A DNA stretch of 32,000 nt from Patescibacteria group bacterium (GTDB lineage Bacteria; Patescibacteriota; Minisyncoccia; UBA6257; HR35). Within the stretch, counting starts at the first letter, position 1. Every line of letters begins with the position of its first letter. The notes beneath the pieces are model-generated. The model did no database searches, was not told the origin of the DNA, and saw nothing but the letters and a program-made list of their open reading frames with translations. The position numbers and the translations under genes were made by a program. The stretch lies in contig JAUQQN010000001.1 in assembly GCA_030549845.1 (NCBI GenBank), forward strand, positions 1 through 32,000. Direction: 5' to 3'. Shown here piece by piece: positions 3,324 to 30,741 of the stretch.

Positions 3324-6029
3324 TTATCCACAACCACCTGTGCTTTCTCCACATTCAATACAAGTATAGCATGAACCTGTTCTTACTGTCATTCCTCCAC
3401 AATATTTACAGGGTGGTCCTGTTAGTTCTTTTTTAAACTCAGCTTCCTGAAATGTTTGTTTAAGTTCTCTTGAAGAAAATAGTTGGGGGTGAGATTTTAA
3501 AATTTTTGATTCGTGAATATCTAGCCCTAGTTGTTTTAATTCTTCTGGAGATAAGAATCTAATTGCTAGATATTTAAATATGTAATCAATTATAGAGCTT
3601 GCTGTGGGGATTTCTGGATTATTGGTAAAACCCATAGGCTCAAATCTCATATGAATAAATTTATTTGCAAGCTCTTTTAATGGGACACCATATTGCAACG
3701 CAATAGAGACAGCTATAGCAAAAGCATCTAAAAGCCCTGCTAAGGTGCTACCTTGTTTTGACATTCTAATAAATATCTCCCCTAATGAACCATCTTCAAA
3801 CATACTATAAGTTAAATACCCTTCATGTCCTGCAACAGAGAATTTATGAGTTTCTGATTGTCTTACATCTGGTAATTTTCTTCTTTGAGTAATTTTTTCT
3901 TTTTTAGTTTCTTTCTTGCTTGTAAATAGAGCTTGGGTTGCTTTTGAACCATCTCTATAGATAGCAAAACATTTAATTCCAAGCTTCCAGGCCTGGATGA
4001 ATGCATTATATACATCTTCTATAGTTGCTGAATTTGGCATATTAAATGTTTTAGAAATAGCACCAGAAAGAAGAGGTTGGACTGCTGCTACCATTTTTAC
4101 ATGACCATCTAATGATATAAATCTCTTACCGCCTGGAGGAGGTACAGACGTATCAAAAATTGCTAAATGTTCTTCTTTAATATGTGGAGCTGTTTCAATG
4201 TTTTGGGTTTCTTCTAAATGTTTAAGTATATCTTCAATTTCTTTTTCAGAATAACCTAGTCTTTTAAGGGCTAATGGTACAGTTTTATTTACAATTTTCA
4301 TCCAGCCTCCACCAACAAGCTGTTTCATTTTTACCAAAGCAAAATCAGGTTCTATTCCTGTTGTATCACAGTCCATCATAAAACTTATTGTCCCCGTAGG
4401 AGCCAAAAGGCTTGCTTGCGCATTTCTAAAACCAAACTTTTCTCCTCTTTCAATTACTTCATCCCAAGCTTTATTCGCTTCTTCTAAAATTTTCTCAGCA
4501 ACTTTTAAGTTAGAATTCGTTAATTCTGTTTTTCCAATTTTGTAACTTTCATCCCGATGCATTTTTATCACTTCGAGCATCGGTTCTTTATTTTTTTCAT
4601 ATTCAGGAAATGGCCCTAAAATTTCAGAAATCTCAGTTGATGTTTTGTAGGCTTCAGCTGTCATAAGTGAAGTAATGCTTGCAGCTAAATATCTCGCTTC
4701 ATTTGAGTCATAAGGAAGGCCTAAAGCCATAATTAAAGCCCCAAGGTTTGTGTAACCTAAACCAATTGTTCGATATTTTTTGGTTTCTTCAGCTATCTTT
4801 GGATGTGGGTAATCAGCGGGCGAAATTAAAATATCTTGAGAAAGAAAAATTACTTTTACTGTATGTTTAAAGGCTTCAATATCGAAATCTCCATCATCTT
4901 TTAAAAATTTCATCAAATTAATCGAAGCAAGATTACATGAAGTCCAGTTAAGGAAGTTATATTCTGAACAAGGGTTAGTTGCTACAATTTCACCTGAATT
5001 TTTACAAGTATGCCATCTATTTATAGTGTCATGAAATTGAATTCCAGGATCGCCACATTCCCACGCTGCCTTAGCTGCTTCCCATAAAATTTCTCTTGCT
5101 TTATATGTTTTTGCTGGTTTTTTAGTCGTACGATAATAAGTTGTCCATTCCTTATCCTCAAGGGCTGCTTTCATAAATTCATCAGTTACCCTAATTGAAT
5201 TATTTGCATTTTGGAAAAATATATTTTGCCACAAAGGGTTATTTAAGTCAGTCATGTCATAGCCAGCTTCCATCAATGCTCTAACTTTGTTTTCCTCTTC
5301 AGCTTTTACTTTGATAAAATCCATAATTTCAGGATGATCAACATTCAAAATTACCATTTTAGCTGCTCGACGTGTTGAACCTCCAGATTTTATACTCCCA
5401 GCAACTGCATCAGCTGCTTTCATAAAAGAAACAACTCCTGAAGAAGAGCCTCCTGTTGAAAGTGGTTCTCCTTTTGCTCTTAGTTTAGATAAGTTTACTC
5501 CTGAACCAGAACCTCCCTTGAAAATCATTCCTTCAATTTTAATCCAATCCAAAATTGATTCCATATTATCTTCAACATCTAAAATAAAGCAGGCTGAACA
5601 TTGTTGTTTCCTACCTTCGACTCCAACATTAAACCAAACAGGAGAATTAAAAGCAGCGTATTGATGAAGCAAAATATAAGTCAGCTCTTCTTCATAAATT
5701 GTCGCAGTTTCCTCATTATCAAAATATCCTTGTTCTAAACCCCACTTTTTGAGTGTTTTTACAACTCTATCAATCAATTCTTTTAAAGAAGTTTCTTGTT
5801 TACCTTTATTGACTTTGAAATATTTCGAAGCTATTATGTTAATTGCATTTTGGCTGTAAAAATCAGGAAATTCTACATTTTCTAATTTAAAATCAGACCC
5901 AAGTATTTCTGCTGTTGTTCTTATCCATTTAACTTCCTCATAAGGATGTATGCCTTCTTTAGTAAAAAACCTCTTTATATTTATTTTTTTAGAAAAAGGG
6001 TTCTTTTGATTTCGTTTTTTTTGTGGCAT
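3324..6029 (-). CDS. nrdJ: adenosylcobalamin-dependent ribonucleotide reductase (class II)
   Basis: 901 aa. Motifs: FNSPVWFNVG, CSACFIL, GGSGSGVNLSKLR, active-site TNPCSEY and LLAPTGTISF. Cys-rich C-terminal tail CKYCGG...CYTCIECGESTGGCG (zinc-ribbon plus terminal Cys pair, as described for class II RNRs). Confidence 0.9.
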   Translation of the reverse strand: MPQKKRNQKNPFSKKINIKRFFTKEGIHPYEEVKWIRTTAEILGSDFKLENVEFPDFYSQNAINIIASKYFKVNKGKQETSLKELIDRVVKTLKKWGLEQGYFDNEETATIYEEELTYILLHQYAAFNSPVWFNVGVEGRKQQCSACFILDVEDNMESILDWIKIEGMIFKGGSGSGVNLSKLRAKGEPLSTGGSSSGVVSFMKAADAVAGSIKSGGSTRRAAKMVILNVDHPEIMDFIKVKAEEENKVRALMEAGYDMTDLNNPLWQNIFFQNANNSIRVTDEFMKAALEDKEWTTYYRTTKKPAKTYKAREILWEAAKAAWECGDPGIQFHDTINRWHTCKNSGEIVATNPCSEYNFLNWTSCNLASINLMKFLKDDGDFDIEAFKHTVKVIFLSQDILISPADYPHPKIAEETKKYRTIGLGYTNLGALIMALGLPYDSNEARYLAASITSLMTAEAYKTSTEISEILGPFPEYEKNKEPMLEVIKMHRDESYKIGKTELTNSNLKVAEKILEEANKAWDEVIERGEKFGFRNAQASLLAPTGTISFMMDCDTTGIEPDFALVKMKQLVGGGWMKIVNKTVPLALKRLGYSEKEIEDILKHLEETQNIETAPHIKEEHLAIFDTSVPPPGGKRFISLDGHVKMVAAVQPLLSGAISKTFNMPNSATIEDVYNAFIQAWKLGIKCFAIYRDGSKATQALFTSKKETKKEKITQRRKLPDVRQSETHKFSVAGHEGYLTYSMFEDGSLGEIFIRMSKQGSTLAGLLDAFAIAVSIALQYGVPLKELANKFIHMRFEPMGFTNNPEIPTASSIIDYIFKYLAIRFLSPEELKQLGLDIHESKILKSHPQLFSSRELKQTFQEAEFKKELTGPPCKYCGGMTVRTGSCYTCIECGESTGGCG

Positions 6030-11861: not shown

Positions 11862-12572
11862 TCAAATTAAAATGTTATCTGCTATAAATTGTGGATATGT
11901 TTTATGAAAGCTATGTCCCCCTTGAGGACAAATTATTAATTTTGAATTTTTAATCAATTTATTGATTATATAAGCATTTTTTAGAGGTGTGATTTTGTCT
12001 TTTTTACCCCAAATTAATATCGTTTCTGTTTTTATTTCAGGCAAAATAGGAGTTAAATCTTCAGAAATTACATTTTGCATTGTTTTTTGCATAATAGGGG
12101 GAAGTTTTAAGTAATCAGTAGAACCAGTAAAAATTTTATAAAAAACCTTTTTGCAAAAAGGTGAAAGAGTAAAAAGAGTTTTTCCTAAGGGTTTAAATAT
12201 ACTAAGTATTTTTTGTATTAATGATTTTTTCCTAACACAAGCTCCATTGTATATTATTAATTTTTCCACTTTTTCTGGATAAAGATAAGTAAATTTACAA
12301 GCTATCTGCCCGCCGAATGAATGCCCCATTAAATAAAATTTATCTATTCCCTTCTCTTCTAGGTATTTTTTCACATACTCTACATAATCATCTAAAGTAA
12401 ATGGCCTTTCAAGCTCTTTATTACTACTAAATCCTGGCAAAATAATAAATTCAACATCAAATTTTTCTTTTAAGCAGTTAACTAATTCTTTATAAAAATC
12501 AAAAATATTTTCTTCTCTATTAATAATATATTTATTTATCCATCCATGCAAAAAAACCAACTTCTTTTTCAT
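11862..12572 (-). CDS. alpha/beta-fold hydrolase
   Basis: FLHGW oxyanion region, nucleophile elbow GHSFGG and C-terminal GGHSFH. 236 aa, with AAGG 6-7 nt upstream of the ATG. Confidence 0.75.
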   Translation of the reverse strand: MKKKLVFLHGWINKYIINREENIFDFYKELVNCLKEKFDVEFIILPGFSSNKELERPFTLDDYVEYVKKYLEEKGIDKFYLMGHSFGGQIACKFTYLYPEKVEKLIIYNGACVRKKSLIQKILSIFKPLGKTLFTLSPFCKKVFYKIFTGSTDYLKLPPIMQKTMQNVISEDLTPILPEIKTETILIWGKKDKITPLKNAYIINKLIKNSKLIICPQGGHSFHKTYPQFIADNILI

Positions 12573-12585
12573 CTTACCTTAATTG

Positions 12586-12615
12586 AACAAATAATTCCGT
12601 ACGGAACTATTTGTT
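12586..12615. repeat. 30-bp near-palindrome, copy A (AACAAATAATTCCGTACGGAACTATTTGTT)
   Basis: Read directly. Arms of 13 bp around CCGTACGG with one A/C mismatch. It lies 10 nt downstream of the regulator stop (12626) and 13 nt upstream of the hydrolase ATG (12572). It is the exact reverse complement of copy B. Confidence 0.9.
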
Positions 12616-12625
12616 TAATTATGAT

Positions 12626-13312
12626 TTACTCATGGGGTTTAATTTTATTTAAATGGAATTTGTATTTTAAAACTTCTTCTCCTTCTATTACTTTCGCTTT
12701 AATATATATTATATTTTCATATACACCTAAAACAGCACTTAAAAAATCAATTTCTTTTTTAATATCAAAAGGATAAACATATACACTTTTTTGTAATCTA
12801 TATAACCCCAAATTTTTTAACCACTTAGAAAATAATTTACGAAAAATTTCTTTTTTATTTGGAATATCAAAAATAACAATCCTCCAATAACCATCCCATT
12901 CTTTATATTTTGGCAATTTTAATAATGAAAGGCTGTATTTTAATATATATTTTTTACCCTCATCATTTATTGTGATAAAATGTTCTTCTCCTTTTTTTGT
13001 TATTCTAATCAATTTTCTTTTTTTCAATTTTTCTATACTATATATAAAATTTTTGGGTGTGGTATTAAACTTTTTGCTTATTTTTTTCAAAAATGGATAT
13101 AAACCTGAAGGCAAATTTGGAAAAAGAAAAGCTGCAGTAATTACTCCCCCTAAAGCTAGGAAGATTAATATATCTCTCATTAGTTCATTTCTTTTTCTTC
13201 TTATCGGAGTATTTTGATAATCTTTATCTACAATATTTTTTTCTTTCAAAGACTTTTTTAAATATAAATAAGCTAATTTTTCTATATCTTGAATATTCTT
13301 ACCCTTTTTCAT
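12626..13312 (-). CDS. PaaX-family-like regulator with predicted membrane anchor and Cas2-like C-terminal domain
   Basis: Hydrophobic helix ILIFLALGGVITAAFLF (aa ~48-64), a winged-helix-like middle (IYSIEKLKKRKLIRITKKGEEHFITINDEGKKYI), and C-terminal WDGYWRIVIFDIPNKK...LQKSVYVYP, typical of PaaX C-terminal/Cas2-fold domains. Confidence 0.65.
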   Translation of the reverse strand: MKKGKNIQDIEKLAYLYLKKSLKEKNIVDKDYQNTPIRRKRNELMRDILIFLALGGVITAAFLFPNLPSGLYPFLKKISKKFNTTPKNFIYSIEKLKKRKLIRITKKGEEHFITINDEGKKYILKYSLSLLKLPKYKEWDGYWRIVIFDIPNKKEIFRKLFSKWLKNLGLYRLQKSVYVYPFDIKKEIDFLSAVLGVYENIIYIKAKVIEGEEVLKYKFHLNKIKPHE

Positions 13313-13360
13313 CCTAAATGGTAAAATTATAAAATAAAAAATTAAAAAATAAATTAATTT

Positions 13361-13390
13361 AACAAATAGTTCCGTACGGAATTATTTGTT
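13361..13390. repeat. 30-bp near-palindrome, copy B (AACAAATAGTTCCGTACGGAATTATTTGTT)
   Basis: Exact reverse complement of copy A (30/30). It lies 48 nt upstream of the regulator ATG (13312) and 20 nt upstream of the recG ATG (13411). Confidence 0.9.
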
Positions 13391-13410
13391 TTATAAAAGA
13401 AGGAAGAAAA

Positions 13411-15498
13411 ATGGAATTGGAAGATTTGGAAATTCCTTTAACTGAGTTTAAGGGAATAGGAGTAAAAACTGCAGAAAAATTTAGAAAGAACAAGATCTTG
13501 ACAATTAAAGATCTATTATATTTTTTTCCTTATAGATATGATGACTTAAGGAATGTTGTAAAAATTAAAGAAGCTAAAATTAACGAATATTGCGTAATAG
13601 TTGGACAGATTAAAAATATAAAAGTTTTCCCTACTCCTAAAAAGAAGATGATATTGATCCAAGGAATTATTGAAGACGAAACAGGTTCATTAAAAGTTAT
13701 TTGGTATAATCAAACTTATATTGCAAAACTCTTAAGCGGTGCTCCGTATGTTATGCTTTATGGGAAGGTTATAAAAAATAAATATGGTTTACATCTTTCT
13801 AATCCAGATTTCAAAATTTTAGAAAGAGGTGTAAAGTTTAAGGGAGAAATAATTCCTGTATACAGAGAAATAAGCGAAATACCTTCTGGTTTCATAAGAA
13901 GGATAATTTTAGAAATTTTTAAAAAATTTCCTATAAACAAGCTACAAGATCCGATTCCAGAATTGATAAGAATAAAAGCAAATATTCCAGAAATTTCAAA
14001 AGCTTTAATTGCTATTCATAAGCCTACAAATTTGGAAGAGATTGAAAAAAGCAGAAGAAGATTTTTGTTTGAAGAAATTTTCTATGTCCAATTAAAAATC
14101 AATCAAGAAAAAATCATGCTTAAATTAGAAAAATCTCCCTCTATAAATTATGATCCTAATTTAATCGAGGACTTTCTTCAAAAAATAAACATAACCCTAA
14201 CTAATGCCCAAAAGGAGGTTTTTAATGAAATTTTAAATGACCTCAATAAGCCTTATCCTATGAATAGATTGATACAAGGAGAAACGGGGGCTGGTAAAAC
14301 TTTAATTGCGGAATTAATTACTTTACTAACTGTAAATAGCGGATATATGGTAATTTTTATGGCTCCTACTGAAATATTAGCTAACCAACATTTCCACCGA
14401 TTTTTAAATGATTTTTCTTATTATGATTATGGCATAGGTTTATTAATAAAAAATTCAGGATATTATGGAATTCATGGTTTTAAAGTAAGAAAAAATAAAG
14501 AAGATATAATCAGACTAATTTTGAGCAAAAAAATAAATATTTTAATTGGAACACATGCTTTAATCGAAAGTCCTATTCCCTACCCTAACGTAGGTCTTGT
14601 AATTATTGATGAACAACAAAGATTTGGGGTTAATCAAAGAAAAAAATTGTTAGAAAAATCATCTCAAGATTATTTGCCTCATTTTATATCAATGACAGCA
14701 ACACCTATTCCAAGAACTTTATATTTGGCATTTTATGGGGATTTAGATCTTTCTATATTAAAAGAAAAACCACCCGGGAGGAAAGATGTTAAAACTTATG
14801 TAGTGGATAAAGAAAACATAAATGAAGTTTGGAATTTTGCAAGAAAAGAAGTTGAGAAAGGTCATCAGGTTTTTGTCATTTGTCCAAGAATAGAAAAAAG
14901 TGATACTGGTAAATATGAAATTAGAACAGTTAAAGAAGAATATGAGAAAATAATAAAATTGTTTCCTGATTATAATGTAGCAATGCTTCACGGTAAAATG
15001 AATAGCCTAGAAAAAGAAATGATAATGAAAAAAATGCAAAATGGAGAAGTTCAGATTTTAGTAGCTTCATCTGTAGTAGAAGTAGGAATTGATTTACCTT
15101 TAGCTACAGTTATAATAATAGAAGGAGCAGAAAGATTTGGACTATCTCAATTACATCAACTTAGAGGAAGGGTTGGAAGATCTATTCATGAAAGCTATTG
15201 TTTTCTAATTCCGGAAGTTTATACTCCTCTTTCTTATAAGAGATTAAAAATTCTAGAAGAATCACAAGATGCTTTTTACATCGCAGAAAAAGATCTAGAA
15301 ATAAGAGGACCTGGGGAACTTTTGGGTGAAAAACAATCTGGAATTCCAGATTTGGCCATGGAAGCTCTTTCAAATATAGAAATAGTCAATTTAGCTCAAA
15401 AATTAGCAGAAGAACTCATTTCACAAAATCCTAAACTTGAAGGTTATCCACTTTTACGAAGAGAAATTGAGAAAAGGAAAGAATTTGTCATAAGTTAA
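13411..15498 (+). CDS. recG: ATP-dependent DNA helicase RecG
   Basis: N-terminal wedge/OB region, Walker A GETGAGKT, DEQQRFG, TATPIPRT, QLHQLRGRVGR, and the C-terminal GPGELLGEKQSG motif. Confidence 0.9.
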   Translation: MELEDLEIPLTEFKGIGVKTAEKFRKNKILTIKDLLYFFPYRYDDLRNVVKIKEAKINEYCVIVGQIKNIKVFPTPKKKMILIQGIIEDETGSLKVIWYNQTYIAKLLSGAPYVMLYGKVIKNKYGLHLSNPDFKILERGVKFKGEIIPVYREISEIPSGFIRRIILEIFKKFPINKLQDPIPELIRIKANIPEISKALIAIHKPTNLEEIEKSRRRFLFEEIFYVQLKINQEKIMLKLEKSPSINYDPNLIEDFLQKINITLTNAQKEVFNEILNDLNKPYPMNRLIQGETGAGKTLIAELITLLTVNSGYMVIFMAPTEILANQHFHRFLNDFSYYDYGIGLLIKNSGYYGIHGFKVRKNKEDIIRLILSKKINILIGTHALIESPIPYPNVGLVIIDEQQRFGVNQRKKLLEKSSQDYLPHFISMTATPIPRTLYLAFYGDLDLSILKEKPPGRKDVKTYVVDKENINEVWNFARKEVEKGHQVFVICPRIEKSDTGKYEIRTVKEEYEKIIKLFPDYNVAMLHGKMNSLEKEMIMKKMQNGEVQILVASSVVEVGIDLPLATVIIIEGAERFGLSQLHQLRGRVGRSIHESYCFLIPEVYTPLSYKRLKILEESQDAFYIAEKDLEIRGPGELLGEKQSGIPDLAMEALSNIEIVNLAQKLAEELISQNPKLEGYPLLRREIEKRKEFVIS

Positions 15499-27475: not shown

Positions 27476-27512
27476 AATTTTGGTAATCAGATTACGAAAA
27501 TTCGTAAATAAT
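27476..27512. repeat. palindrome family copy 1 (core GTAATCAGATTAC at 27483-27495)
   Basis: AATTTTGGTAATCAGATTACGAAAATTCGTAAATAAT. 36/37 identical to copy 3. About 80 bp upstream of the macA-like ATG (27401) and about 70 bp downstream of the GxxExxY stop. Confidence 0.9.
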
Positions 27513-27564: not shown

Positions 27565-28032
27565 TTAATCATTATGATTCTCTAATTTTATTTCTGCAAT
27601 TTTTAGACCTTTATAATTTTTCACCTCTGCCTTCAGTTGTCCTGATGGTTTTGTAAAATTAAAAACAAAACCTATTGGATAAAGTTCTTCGTTATCTTTT
27701 AATTCCTTTCTTAGTTCTTGCATATACCTTTCAACTTGTTTTTGGCTATCGATCTTAAGCTCAGAAATAGACTTTAACTCAATAATTATCGCGATTTTTT
27801 TCTTTCCTTTTGTATACCAAACTATTAAGTCAGGGGCTCCTCTTCCAACAACATAACCATTAAAAGTTATAGGTAATGTTCTTTGAGCTTCATATTTTAT
27901 TCCTTTCTCTCTTAAAGCTACTTCCATTGCTTTTTGATAAATATCTTCTTCCCAGCCTGCGCCTAATTCCTCATAAACCCTTGCTGCACATTCTTTCAAT
28001 TCATTTATTAATTCTTTAATCCCTTTCTCCAT
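27565..28032 (-). CDS. GxxExxY family protein (PD-(D/E)XK nuclease-fold)
   Basis: GAGWEEDIYQKAMEVAL contains the G-x-x-E-x-x-Y signature. Downstream, PDLIV ... IIELKS matches the D..(D/E)xK layout. 155 aa. Confidence 0.75.
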   Translation of the reverse strand: MEKGIKELINELKECAARVYEELGAGWEEDIYQKAMEVALREKGIKYEAQRTLPITFNGYVVGRGAPDLIVWYTKGKKKIAIIIELKSISELKIDSQKQVERYMQELRKELKDNEELYPIGFVFNFTKPSGQLKAEVKNYKGLKIAEIKLENHND

Positions 28033-29869: not shown

Positions 29870-29925
29870 CCTCAAATGCGACAAATAAATCCTTTTTCTC
29901 AAGAGGCTGAGAAATTAATTATAAT

Positions 29926-30741
29926 TTAGAGAATTATTCTTAAATCATCATTTTTTAAGATAATATTTTTTGTTTTAAGGTCGAGATATATTTGAATAGC
30001 TTTGATTTTTATATCTTTCTTTTTAGCAATTTTAAGTAATTTATAGATTTTTTCATCAGCATCCTTATTTGGTTTAAAAGCATTAATATTTTTAATACCT
30101 GCGATAAAAAGGATAATTGAATTTTTTGGTTTTCTTATTAATTCTTTAATATGTTTTTGACCCCTCAAAGAGGGACAGTCAGGATACATAGCAAGATTAT
30201 CTCTTTTCATTACAGCACTTTTAATTTCTAAATAATATTTTTTATTTTTGTATTGAACTAAATAATCAATTAGAGAATTATTTAATTTTATATTCTTTTT
30301 CAATATTTTTGCTCCTTTAAGCCATGAAATCAAATTTTTTTCAACAGCAATTTCAAAACATTTCATTTGAAGTAAAGTATCTATTATACTTGCTGAGTTT
30401 TTGTCTTCTTTAATAAAGGAAAGTCTATATTTTGTTTTTTTAGGATTTTTTAGAGGGGAAAGATAACCAATTTTTCTTTTAATTAAAAATTGTTCTAATC
30501 TTCCAGTATTATTTAAAGAAGCTTTAGTAATTTTATTATTAATTTTTACCTCGATAACAAATCTATTTACTCGTCTAACAATTTTAGAGGGGATTAAAGA
30601 AGGGATTTTTAAAATGCTTCTCATCAAACAAAATTCTATTATAATTAATTTCTCATTATCTTGAGAAAATAAGGAAGATTTTCGCTCTGCGCCGTTTTTA
30701 CGCTGTAAAGCAATTTTTAAGTAATCTGAAGAAATATTCAA
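29926..30741 (-). CDS. sfsA: SfsA-family protein (OB-fold plus PD-(D/E)XK nuclease-like domain)
   Basis: RRVNRFVIEV (family RxxRF motif), NTGRL, YLEIKSAV and YPDCPSLRGQKHIKEL align with E. coli SfsA. 30741 is a TTG. The ATG at 30624 (MRSILKIPS...) puts RxxRF at the usual distance from the N-terminus and is the more likely start. Confidence 0.8.
   Translation of the reverse strand: MNISSDYLKIALQRKNGAERKSSLFSQDNEKLIIIEFCLMRSILKIPSLIPSKIVRRVNRFVIEVKINNKITKASLNNTGRLEQFLIKRKIGYLSPLKNPKKTKYRLSFIKEDKNSASIIDTLLQMKCFEIAVEKNLISWLKGAKILKKNIKLNNSLIDYLVQYKNKKYYLEIKSAVMKRDNLAMYPDCPSLRGQKHIKELIRKPKNSIILFIAGIKNINAFKPNKDADEKIYKLLKIAKKKDIKIKAIQIYLDLKTKNIILKNDDLRIIL

Follow-up and report, generated by a model that had tools for sequence, protein, structure and literature searches.

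A palindrome-bracketed gene for a winged-helix/Cas2-like protein as a probable inserted cassette between a hydrolase gene and recG in a Patescibacteria genome

We analysed the first 32,000 nucleotides of contig JAUQQN010000001.1 from an ultra-small bacterium of the Patescibacteria group (assembly GCA_030549845.1), a stretch that we call the window. Between an alpha/beta hydrolase gene and recG it holds a single gene for a winged-helix and Cas2-like protein, hereafter the regulator, and this gene is bracketed by two copies of a 30-nt palindrome, AACAAATAATTCCGTACGGAACTATTTGTT (copy A) and its exact reverse complement (copy B; Table 1). A first-pass annotation made from the letters of the window had described the two 30-mers as exact, mutually inverted copies, each a dyad with 13-bp arms and a single A/C mismatch, lying 13, 20, 48 and 10 nt from the neighbouring start and stop codons; the sequences, coordinates, dyad and all four distances are correct. 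It had also described both neighbours as facing outward; to be precise, recG alone is divergent, and the hydrolase gene runs in the same direction as the regulator gene and lies immediately downstream of it. We consider it probable, at roughly 0.6, that the palindromes and the gene form a self-contained cassette, a protein together with its binding sites, inserted into the hydrolase-recG spacer and following a logic like that of REP sequences and their RAYT proteins, with a PaaX/Cas2-like protein in the place of the RAYT.

Table 1. Features of the hydrolase-recG interval in the window.
Feature	Position	Strand	Basis or placement
Alpha/beta hydrolase gene, flanking host gene outside the element	11862-12572	-	adjacent to recG in relatives
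Putative host spacer remnant, 13 nt, with the hydrolase ribosome-binding site AAGG	12573-12585	-	read from the sequence
Proposed inserted cassette (palindrome, gene, palindrome; 805 bp)	12586-13390	.	empty sites in L092/L093, L094 and L095/L096; exact boundaries predicted
Palindrome copy A (type-1 site)	12586-12615	.	10 nt past regulator stop, 13 nt before hydrolase ATG
Regulator gene, winged helix + Cas2-like (PaaX-middle-domain) protein, 228 aa	12626-13312	-	Pfam, NCBIfam, alignment, AlphaFold model, fold search
Palindrome copy B, exact reverse complement of A	13361-13390	.	48 nt upstream of regulator start, 20 nt before recG ATG
Host spacer remnant, 20 nt, with the recG ribosome-binding site AAGGAAG and TATAAA abutting palindrome B	13391-13410	+	compared with L091/L092 spacers
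recG, flanking host gene outside the element	13411-15498	+	context

Each copy can be written as a 15+15 dyad with one A/C mismatch or, equivalently, as 13-bp arms around GTAC. On the opposite strand the mismatch becomes a G.U wobble, leaving the RNA hairpin fully paired there; the hairpin of the 30-mer has a predicted energy of -14 to -17 kcal/mol (z -5 to -7), and its stem is AT-rich with a GC core of only 4 bp. The similarity between A and B continues weakly into the flanks, as 57-nt arms that are 86% complementary. Copy A is identical in two relatives at about 99% identity (L001 and L086), and comparison of the window with L001 gave changes at 0 of 60 palindrome positions and 3 of 91 positions of other spacer DNA, numbers too small for significance. 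No further copy of the 30-mer with up to three mismatches occurs in the 32-kb window, nor did one arise in 100 shuffles. A -10-like TATAAT can be read between copy B and the regulator start, and copy B therefore probably lies outside the regulator mRNA. On the hydrolase side, the 13-nt remnant would leave a separate promoter no room.

The regulator combines an N-terminal winged helix with a Cas2-like domain, and the PaaX/Cas2-like assignment made at first pass holds. PF20803 (PaaX_M, the central Cas2-like domain of PaaX) matches with an E value of 4.2e-17 (62.5 bits, cut-off 24), and the NCBIfam cas2 model TIGR01573 scores 27.7 bits against a cut-off of 24.5, covering model positions 3-41 only; PF09827 reaches 22.7 against 23.8. 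The PaaX equivalog model TIGR02277 gives 25.8 bits, far below its cut-off of 264.55, and the C-terminal ligand (aryl-CoA) domain of PaaX, PF08223, has no match in the regulator, which ends after the Cas2-like domain. An AlphaFold model (pLDDT 78.6 overall, above 90 in the C-terminal Cas2-like domain) shows a winged helix-turn-helix (H-b-H-H-b-b) at residues 36-115, a linker helix and a beta-alpha-beta-beta-alpha-beta domain; profile matches of the N-terminal part are to winged helix-turn-helix proteins and to PaaX residues 55-114. The fold search returned E. coli PaaX (8A39) at the top, together with the PaaX-like 3L09 and Rv0674, and Cas2 structures for the C-terminal domain. A single-sequence search of the PDB with the C-terminal domain gave insignificant matches only (I-DmoI, E 0.4; Cas2 3EXC, E 0.5). 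Across the family the alignment conserves W..WR.VIFDIP...R...L...G...LQKSV..P, with an invariant Asp ending strand 1, the hallmark position of Cas2. A transmembrane anchor was considered for the hydrophobic N-terminal segment and rejected: the model puts the segment in helix 1 and strand 1 of the winged helix, and the stretch is probably not a membrane anchor. The Pfam scan found no known transposase domain in the regulator and no Y1 transposase match, and the conserved columns include no invariant HUH motif or Tyr.

An exact-protein look-up of the window regulator gave no match, and a 99% relative (P0001) was used instead. At 50% identity the family comprises 6551 clusters with E values up to 1e-3 and 4171 with E values up to 1e-10, nearly all of 180-240 aa. 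Scanning one genome per species with a 10-sequence alignment as the query (a 29-sequence alignment was too diverse) located more than 561 family loci, almost all in assemblies of Patescibacteria, the candidate phyla radiation (CPR); no family member was found on viral contigs. One 99%-identical relative (L001; GCA_038895215.1, contig JAWANT010000036.1) is deposited as 'Candidatus Aenigmatarchaeota archaeon', an assembly that is probably misclassified or mis-binned, since its gene content (recG and other neighbours) and all of its relatives are those of bacterial Patescibacteria. Catabolic paa genes are not among the neighbours, which are the hydrolase gene and recG here and unrelated housekeeping genes at other loci. 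Neither cas1, other cas genes nor a CRISPR array was seen in the window or in the loci examined, whose neighbours were read from Pfam listings.

The bracketing seen in the window is a property of the family. In the first homologous loci that we read, with proteins 37-41% identical, a long palindrome stood before and after the gene and each locus had a sequence of its own: TGTACAATTATTTCCGCTATAGCGGAAATAATTGTACA, twice, in L002; TCGCATAATCTTAAGCTATAGCAGAGATTT[G/A]TGCGA, twice and in direct orientation, in L003; and two related palindromes centred on CCAACGTAYGTTG in L005. We scored bracketing in 78 usable loci by comparing the 300 nt on either side of a gene with each other and taking their best ungapped match, with 228 size-matched genes in the same loci as controls. 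A flank element scoring at least 18 was present at 50 of the 78 regulator loci and at 1 of the 228 control genes. The shared palindromes are 26-50 bp long (median 35.5 bp), differ in sequence between lineages, and have a GC-rich palindromic core (GCTATAGC in 11 loci, GCGATCGC in 7, GCCATGGC in 6, plus others) set between AT-rich arms that are particular to each lineage. Median distances to the gene are 30 nt from the end of the upstream copy to the start codon and 27 nt from the stop codon to the beginning of the downstream copy. Pairing of protein and palindrome is specific to the lineage, and paralogues within one genome carry different palindromes (JAHISW01, CAZZNB01 and JAHIOR01). The genes next to the regulator are unrelated from one locus to another. 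At 13 of 42 homologous loci the next gene downstream is convergent, so that the downstream copy is not simply the operator of that gene.

Two observations on individual loci stand beside these counts. The only control gene with a strong flank match (L072, 5514-6248, + strand; score 23) is by its position no member of the regulator family. In L002 the downstream palindrome (4633-4672) is followed about 90 nt further on by a tRNA-like sequence on the same strand (about 4760-4835, judged by eye), where the neighbours are again unrelated.

It is very improbable, given these figures, that the 30-mer is a generic genome-wide hairpin, a terminator or REP-like sequence unrelated to the regulator and bracketing it by coincidence. 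The element does form a stable RNA hairpin, its solo copies (described below) are found at 3' ends between convergent genes, a position shared with terminators and REPs, and the window holds other intergenic palindrome families. However, coincidence accounts poorly for 50 of 78 loci against 1 of 228 with lineage-specific sequences, and no copy of the window's own element (type 1) with up to six mismatches is present in about 96 kb of relatives that lack a type-1 regulator. An intrinsic terminator was likewise tried and rejected, as the terminator scan calls neither copy and no U-tract follows the AT-rich stem.

The relative orientation of the two copies bears on a further proposal. The first-pass annotation had pointed out that A and B would pair over 30 of 30 positions in a transcript spanning both; this is arithmetically true of the window but is no family property, because direct orientation dominates elsewhere (17 loci direct, 6 inverted, 27 undecidable). 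We thus give almost no credence to an RNA-level or DNA-inversion device, in which the inverted copies would pair in a long transcript or recombine and invert the gene between them. The perfect complementarity in the window is what such a device would use, but long-range pairing and an invertible segment were both rejected on the dominant orientation, no recombinase gene was identified beside the cassette, and the TATAAT downstream of copy B probably leaves that copy outside the regulator mRNA.

To place the locus in its lineage, we compared RecG relatives on long contigs, ranked by RecG identity to the window. In the nearest (L091, RecG 82%), the hydrolase-recG interval holds a regulator of 228 aa with palindromes of a different kind, which we call type 2. 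The interval is empty in L092/L093 (RecG 80%, 67-nt spacer), in L094 (69%, 18-nt spacer) and in L095/L096 (63%, 106-nt spacer): the spacers of L092, L094 and L095 contain no regulator and no palindrome, and the start codons of the hydrolase gene and recG face each other directly. Gene order from the hydrolase gene through recG and PCMT to the downstream genes is kept in L091, L092/L093 and L095/L096, and the divergent hydrolase-recG pair is also found in L094. These empty sites support an insertion of the cassette. No target-site duplication is recognizable at the window cassette or at the solo-copy junction described below, nor did the inserted unit show defined ends.

The L091 locus adds a second layer to this picture. 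The identities of RecG (88%), PCMT and the hydrolase make the empty L092 the sister of L091. The L091 regulator is only 51% identical to that of the window, compared with 82% for RecG, 80% for PCMT and 59% for the hydrolase, and it is flanked by 3+3 copies of the type-2 palindrome (consensus ACTATAAGGACATATGTCCTTATAGT), which leave 66 nt to the hydrolase start and about 50 nt to that of recG, where the window has 13 and 20 nt. A type-2 cassette is also present in a close relative, L006, with a regulator 78.5% identical and 4+3 sites; here the cassette directly adjoins the 3' end of the gene for the CCA-adding enzyme, a protein 83-89% identical to its L092 counterpart, and the other neighbours are unrelated. 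The simplest history is that two cassette types inserted independently into the same spacer. An alternative history, which would count against our interpretation, has a single gain followed by clean loss in L092 and fast divergence. Excision by recombination between the flanking repeats would leave one copy, and L092 has none. Under either history the palindromes arrived together with the gene, and neither the hydrolase gene nor recG had them as ancestral control elements.

Two features of these loci are recorded here in their own right. The type-2 sites form arrays of 3-4 per side at distances of about 50-120 bp (L091, 3129-3278 and 4048-4211; L006, 2974-3308 and 4072-4359), reminiscent of multi-site transposon ends or of cooperative operator arrays. 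In three lineages the recG ATG is preceded by TATAAT or TATAAA at a distance of only 7-13 nt (L092, 5988-6003; L091, 4246-4264; window, 13392-13413); in L092 this position would imply a leaderless recG mRNA. In the window, the TATAAA next to palindrome B is a putative recG promoter element.

Conservation within the sites resembles that of binding sites. Across 14 type-2 sites the blocks ACTAT, CATATG and ATAGT are invariant and the four-base (N4) blocks between them vary, with the outer half-sites about two helical turns apart, a pattern as would be expected from selection for contacts with a symmetric dimer. In E. coli, PaaX represses its own promoter and binds a dyad of 39 bp, TGATTC-N27-GAATCA (PMC9493321), so that long dyads fit the architecture of the regulator. 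The six type-1 sites, by comparison, are nearly identical, holding 58 of 60 possible bits. By our own estimate about 18 bits would be enough to specify some 10 sites in a genome of about 1 Mb, and the likeness of the type-1 copies is therefore due to recent common descent, not to convergence by mutation.

The first-pass annotation had suggested looking for further copies of the 30-mer, and these exist. A metagenome scan with the query AATANTTCCGTACGGAANTATT, its asymmetric positions left free, found the element on five contigs, all of one project. The regulator locus accounts for one of them; the other four (L087-L090) have nothing in common with the window but the palindrome, which is identical at 28-30 of 30 positions and carries the same A/C asymmetry in every case. 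Their GC content (27-30%) matches that of the window. All four solo copies lie at gene 3' ends, right after stop codons. Three are situated between convergent stop codons, in the gene pairs M23/YkuD peptidase-TrxB, transketolase-GNAT acetyltransferase and ABC ATPase-DUF362 protein, and the fourth stands at the tsaD stop codon. Solo copies are not restricted to type 1: L091 has a type-2 copy about 40 nt past the stop of a TPR gene, and in other lineages a third copy lies a few kb away in 6 of 50 loci (454 kb).

One of these junctions captures a solo insertion. In same-species contigs (TrxB 99%) the trxB junction has a 38-nt spacer that holds the element, whereas in L100 (84%) and L101 (80%) it is element-free and the two genes overlap by 4 nt, with overlapping stop codons. 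The alignment places about 40 nt of inserted sequence in the last codons of the peptidase gene, changing the C terminus from ...FLFED-stop or ...FLFRN-stop to ...FLFQLNK-stop, with a new TAG stop from the palindrome arm. The solo palindrome (L087, 632-661; L097, 8062-8091) thus supplies the stop codon of the YkuD/M23 peptidase. Both palindrome arms read AAC AAA TAA/TAG inward, giving a stop on either strand in one frame, and such built-in stops may explain how the element survives between overlapping convergent genes.

These data allow the first reading of the layout, one operator through which the regulator would control itself and both neighbours, to be divided. The link between protein and palindrome is strongly supported by their co-variation in the family; the neighbours, on the other hand, do not form an ancestral regulon. 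If recG or the hydrolase gene is controlled at all, this would follow from where the cassette landed, in view of the adjacent, regulator-free pair in relatives, the convergent downstream neighbour in 13 of 42 loci and the solo copies at gene 3' ends. We accordingly regard as unlikely an ordinary resident repressor that evolved in place, with a fixed small regulon of itself, the hydrolase gene and recG under one operator type. Such a repressor would agree with the PaaX-like architecture and long dyads, with sites 13 and 20 nt from the neighbouring starts in equal orientation relative to each outward gene, with the binding-site-like conservation of type-2 sites and with the stable gene context of several lineages. 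It does not account for three relatives in which the hydrolase gene and recG are adjacent without regulator or sites, for neighbours that are unrelated across loci, or for solo sites between convergent stop codons, where there is no promoter and where one site is a recent insertion; nor can six near-identical 30-mers come from point mutation.

The suggestion that the locus is a minimal mobile cassette with terminal inverted repeats fares similarly. The empty sites lend support to its mobile part, but the terminal inverted repeats are unsupported, given 17 direct against 6 inverted loci, no target-site duplication, and paralogues with different palindromes in one genome. In its full form, a classical insertion sequence would have the 30-mers as terminal inverted repeats and the Cas2-like protein as a transposase moving the whole 0.8-kb unit. 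The empty sites, the exact inverted 30-mers of the window, the arrays at both ends of the L091 and L006 cassettes, like those of multi-site transposons, and the invariant Asp in a nuclease-type fold are all in keeping with this. Nevertheless, we think it distinctly unlikely: the regulator has no known transposase domain and was not met on viral contigs, many lineages are syntenic and stable, and orientation, the missing target duplication and the lack of an identical second cassette in any genome sampled together indicate that the cassette is not a classical insertion sequence with terminal inverted repeats.

Several points weigh against the interpretation as an inserted, propagating cassette. 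At 28 of the 78 loci the bracketing score is under the threshold, and the orientation of the copies varies, with the window in the inverted minority. Among 11 locus pairs with regulators at least 75% identical, 6 keep their flanking genes and the other 5 share none, and the regulator can exceed its neighbours in conservation (87% against 75%; 83% against 68% and 55%). In many lineages the cassette is therefore passed on vertically, as an ordinary gene under purifying selection would be. Identical cassettes within one genome were absent from the genomes sampled, giving no sign of recent transposition of the whole cassette. The solo copies are assigned to the window species only by metagenome project, GC content and parallel identity levels. 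Copy number looks low: the 32-kb window has 2 copies, and other loci, 454 kb in all, contain 6 extra ones. In E. coli, PaaX acts as a plain repressor. To our knowledge, known CRISPR adaptation complexes can do without Cas2 catalysis, so that the Cas2-like domain may only dimerize. Finally, binding, repression and a role in copying are putative. The cassette behaves as a long-term resident that occasionally inserts or relocates, with short sites that propagate more readily, and not as a hyperactive transposon.

We nonetheless favour the cassette as the account of the locus. The 30-mers would be the cognate sites of the winged-helix/Cas2-like protein encoded between them, and sites and gene would have entered the short hydrolase-recG spacer as one unit. 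The protein may bind the dyad as a PaaX-type dimer, with the upstream site serving self-repression. Since the sites now stand 13 and 20 nt from the start codons of the hydrolase gene and recG, next to the ribosome-binding sites, binding might also affect these two genes as a side effect. The sites would also be copied alone to other intergenic places, mostly just after stop codons, so that the site family would propagate by copying and co-diversify with its protein across Patescibacteria. Through its conserved Cas2-type Asp the cassette protein could take part in this copying. The stronger proposal, that the winged-helix/Cas2-like protein itself copies or inserts the repeats of about 30 bp and its own cassette, by a nuclease or integrase activity on a Cas2 fold without Cas1, is in our judgement doubtful.

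Comparison with known systems sharpens what is distinctive here. In the REP/REPIN-RAYT system a gene is flanked by its own palindromes, the repeat type is specific to the protein, paralogues are distinct and the repeats are extragenic (PMC3337134). Our cassettes share the flanking palindromes, the protein-repeat pairing and the distinct paralogues in one genome, as well as repeats dispersed extragenically, often at 3' ends, and a gene that is mostly single-copy and often inherited vertically. They differ in that the protein is winged-helix and Cas2-like and has no HUH/Y1 (IS200-like) transposase domain, so that membership in the REP/REPIN-RAYT system fails on its defining protein. Moreover, the repeats are full dyads of 26-50 bp with a GC-rich centre, copies appear to number about 10 and not hundreds (judged from fragmentary metagenome contigs), and the gene cassette varies in presence and absence at syntenic sites.

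With PaaX, the phenylacetyl-CoA-responsive repressor (PDB 8A39, 3L09), the regulator shares the N-terminal winged helix and Cas2-like middle domain, and PaaX gives its best fold and profile matches; PaaX too recognizes a long dyad and represses its own gene. The regulator is, however, far below the equivalog cut-off, and the lack of the C-terminal ligand-binding domain and of nearby paa genes indicates that it is not a PaaX orthologue; its sites, moreover, flank its own gene at either end and have been dispersed and inserted. The resemblance to Cas2 lies in the beta1 motif with its Asp (VIFDIP in the regulator, YDI in Cas2), a Q.SVF-type motif, a score that exceeds the NCBIfam cas2 cut-off across the first 40 positions of the model, and an association with partly palindromic repeats of about 30 bp. 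In contrast to Cas2, the regulator is fused to a DNA-binding domain and its repeats flank the gene instead of being interspaced by spacers; given that no cas1 or array was seen, it is not a CRISPR Cas2. IS200/IS605 elements, MITEs, Rickettsia RPEs and Neisseria Correia elements offer parallels in the small single-gene unit, the hairpin-forming ends without obvious target duplication, and solo elements at or into gene ends that remodel a C terminus or give a stop codon, but the cassette has no HUH or DDE enzyme and both of its ends are the same full dyad, not a distinct left and right end. We found no description in the literature of a Cas2-like or PaaX-like protein with cognate dispersed palindromes, and a protein/repeat pair of this composition that spreads by copying has apparently not been described so far.

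Elsewhere in the window there are other palindromes around genes. A second intergenic family, TTTTSGTAATCAGATTACGAAAA, occurs at 27483, 28177, 28319, 29853 and 31842 (with a variant at about 31949), that is, in 5-6 copies in 4.5 kb. Two copies bracket a gene of the GxxExxY (PD-(D/E)XK nuclease) family at 27565-28032, and others end neighbouring transcription units; no second PaaX/Cas2-like gene that would explain the GTAATCAGATTAC palindromes was found in the window. A third inverted pair (29894-29925 and 30638-30669) has 32-nt arms that are 91% complementary and each make a TTCTCA..TGAGAA hairpin. The pair directly adjoins the stop and the start of the sfsA (DNA/RNA nuclease) gene at 29926-30636, the same layout of palindromes around one 0.7-kb gene. 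Three nuclease-fold genes in the window are thus bracketed by palindromes.

If our interpretation is true, the cassette would represent a second, independent partnership of the REP/RAYT type between a protein and self-propagating palindromes, on a different fold and in a large family. Many 'Cas2' and 'PaaX' annotations in CPR genomes would thereby be explained, and the family would offer ready-made orthogonal pairs of proteins and 30-40 bp sites. It would also illustrate the remodelling of gene ends and promoters by such elements in very compact genomes, and the homology with Cas2 would make the origin of the association between CRISPR adaptation and repeats testable in a one-protein system. 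Should the Cas2-fold protein itself copy the repeats, the cassettes would make up a new mobile-element class in CPR bacteria and provide a living analogue for the first tie of a Cas2-type protein to short palindromic repeats.

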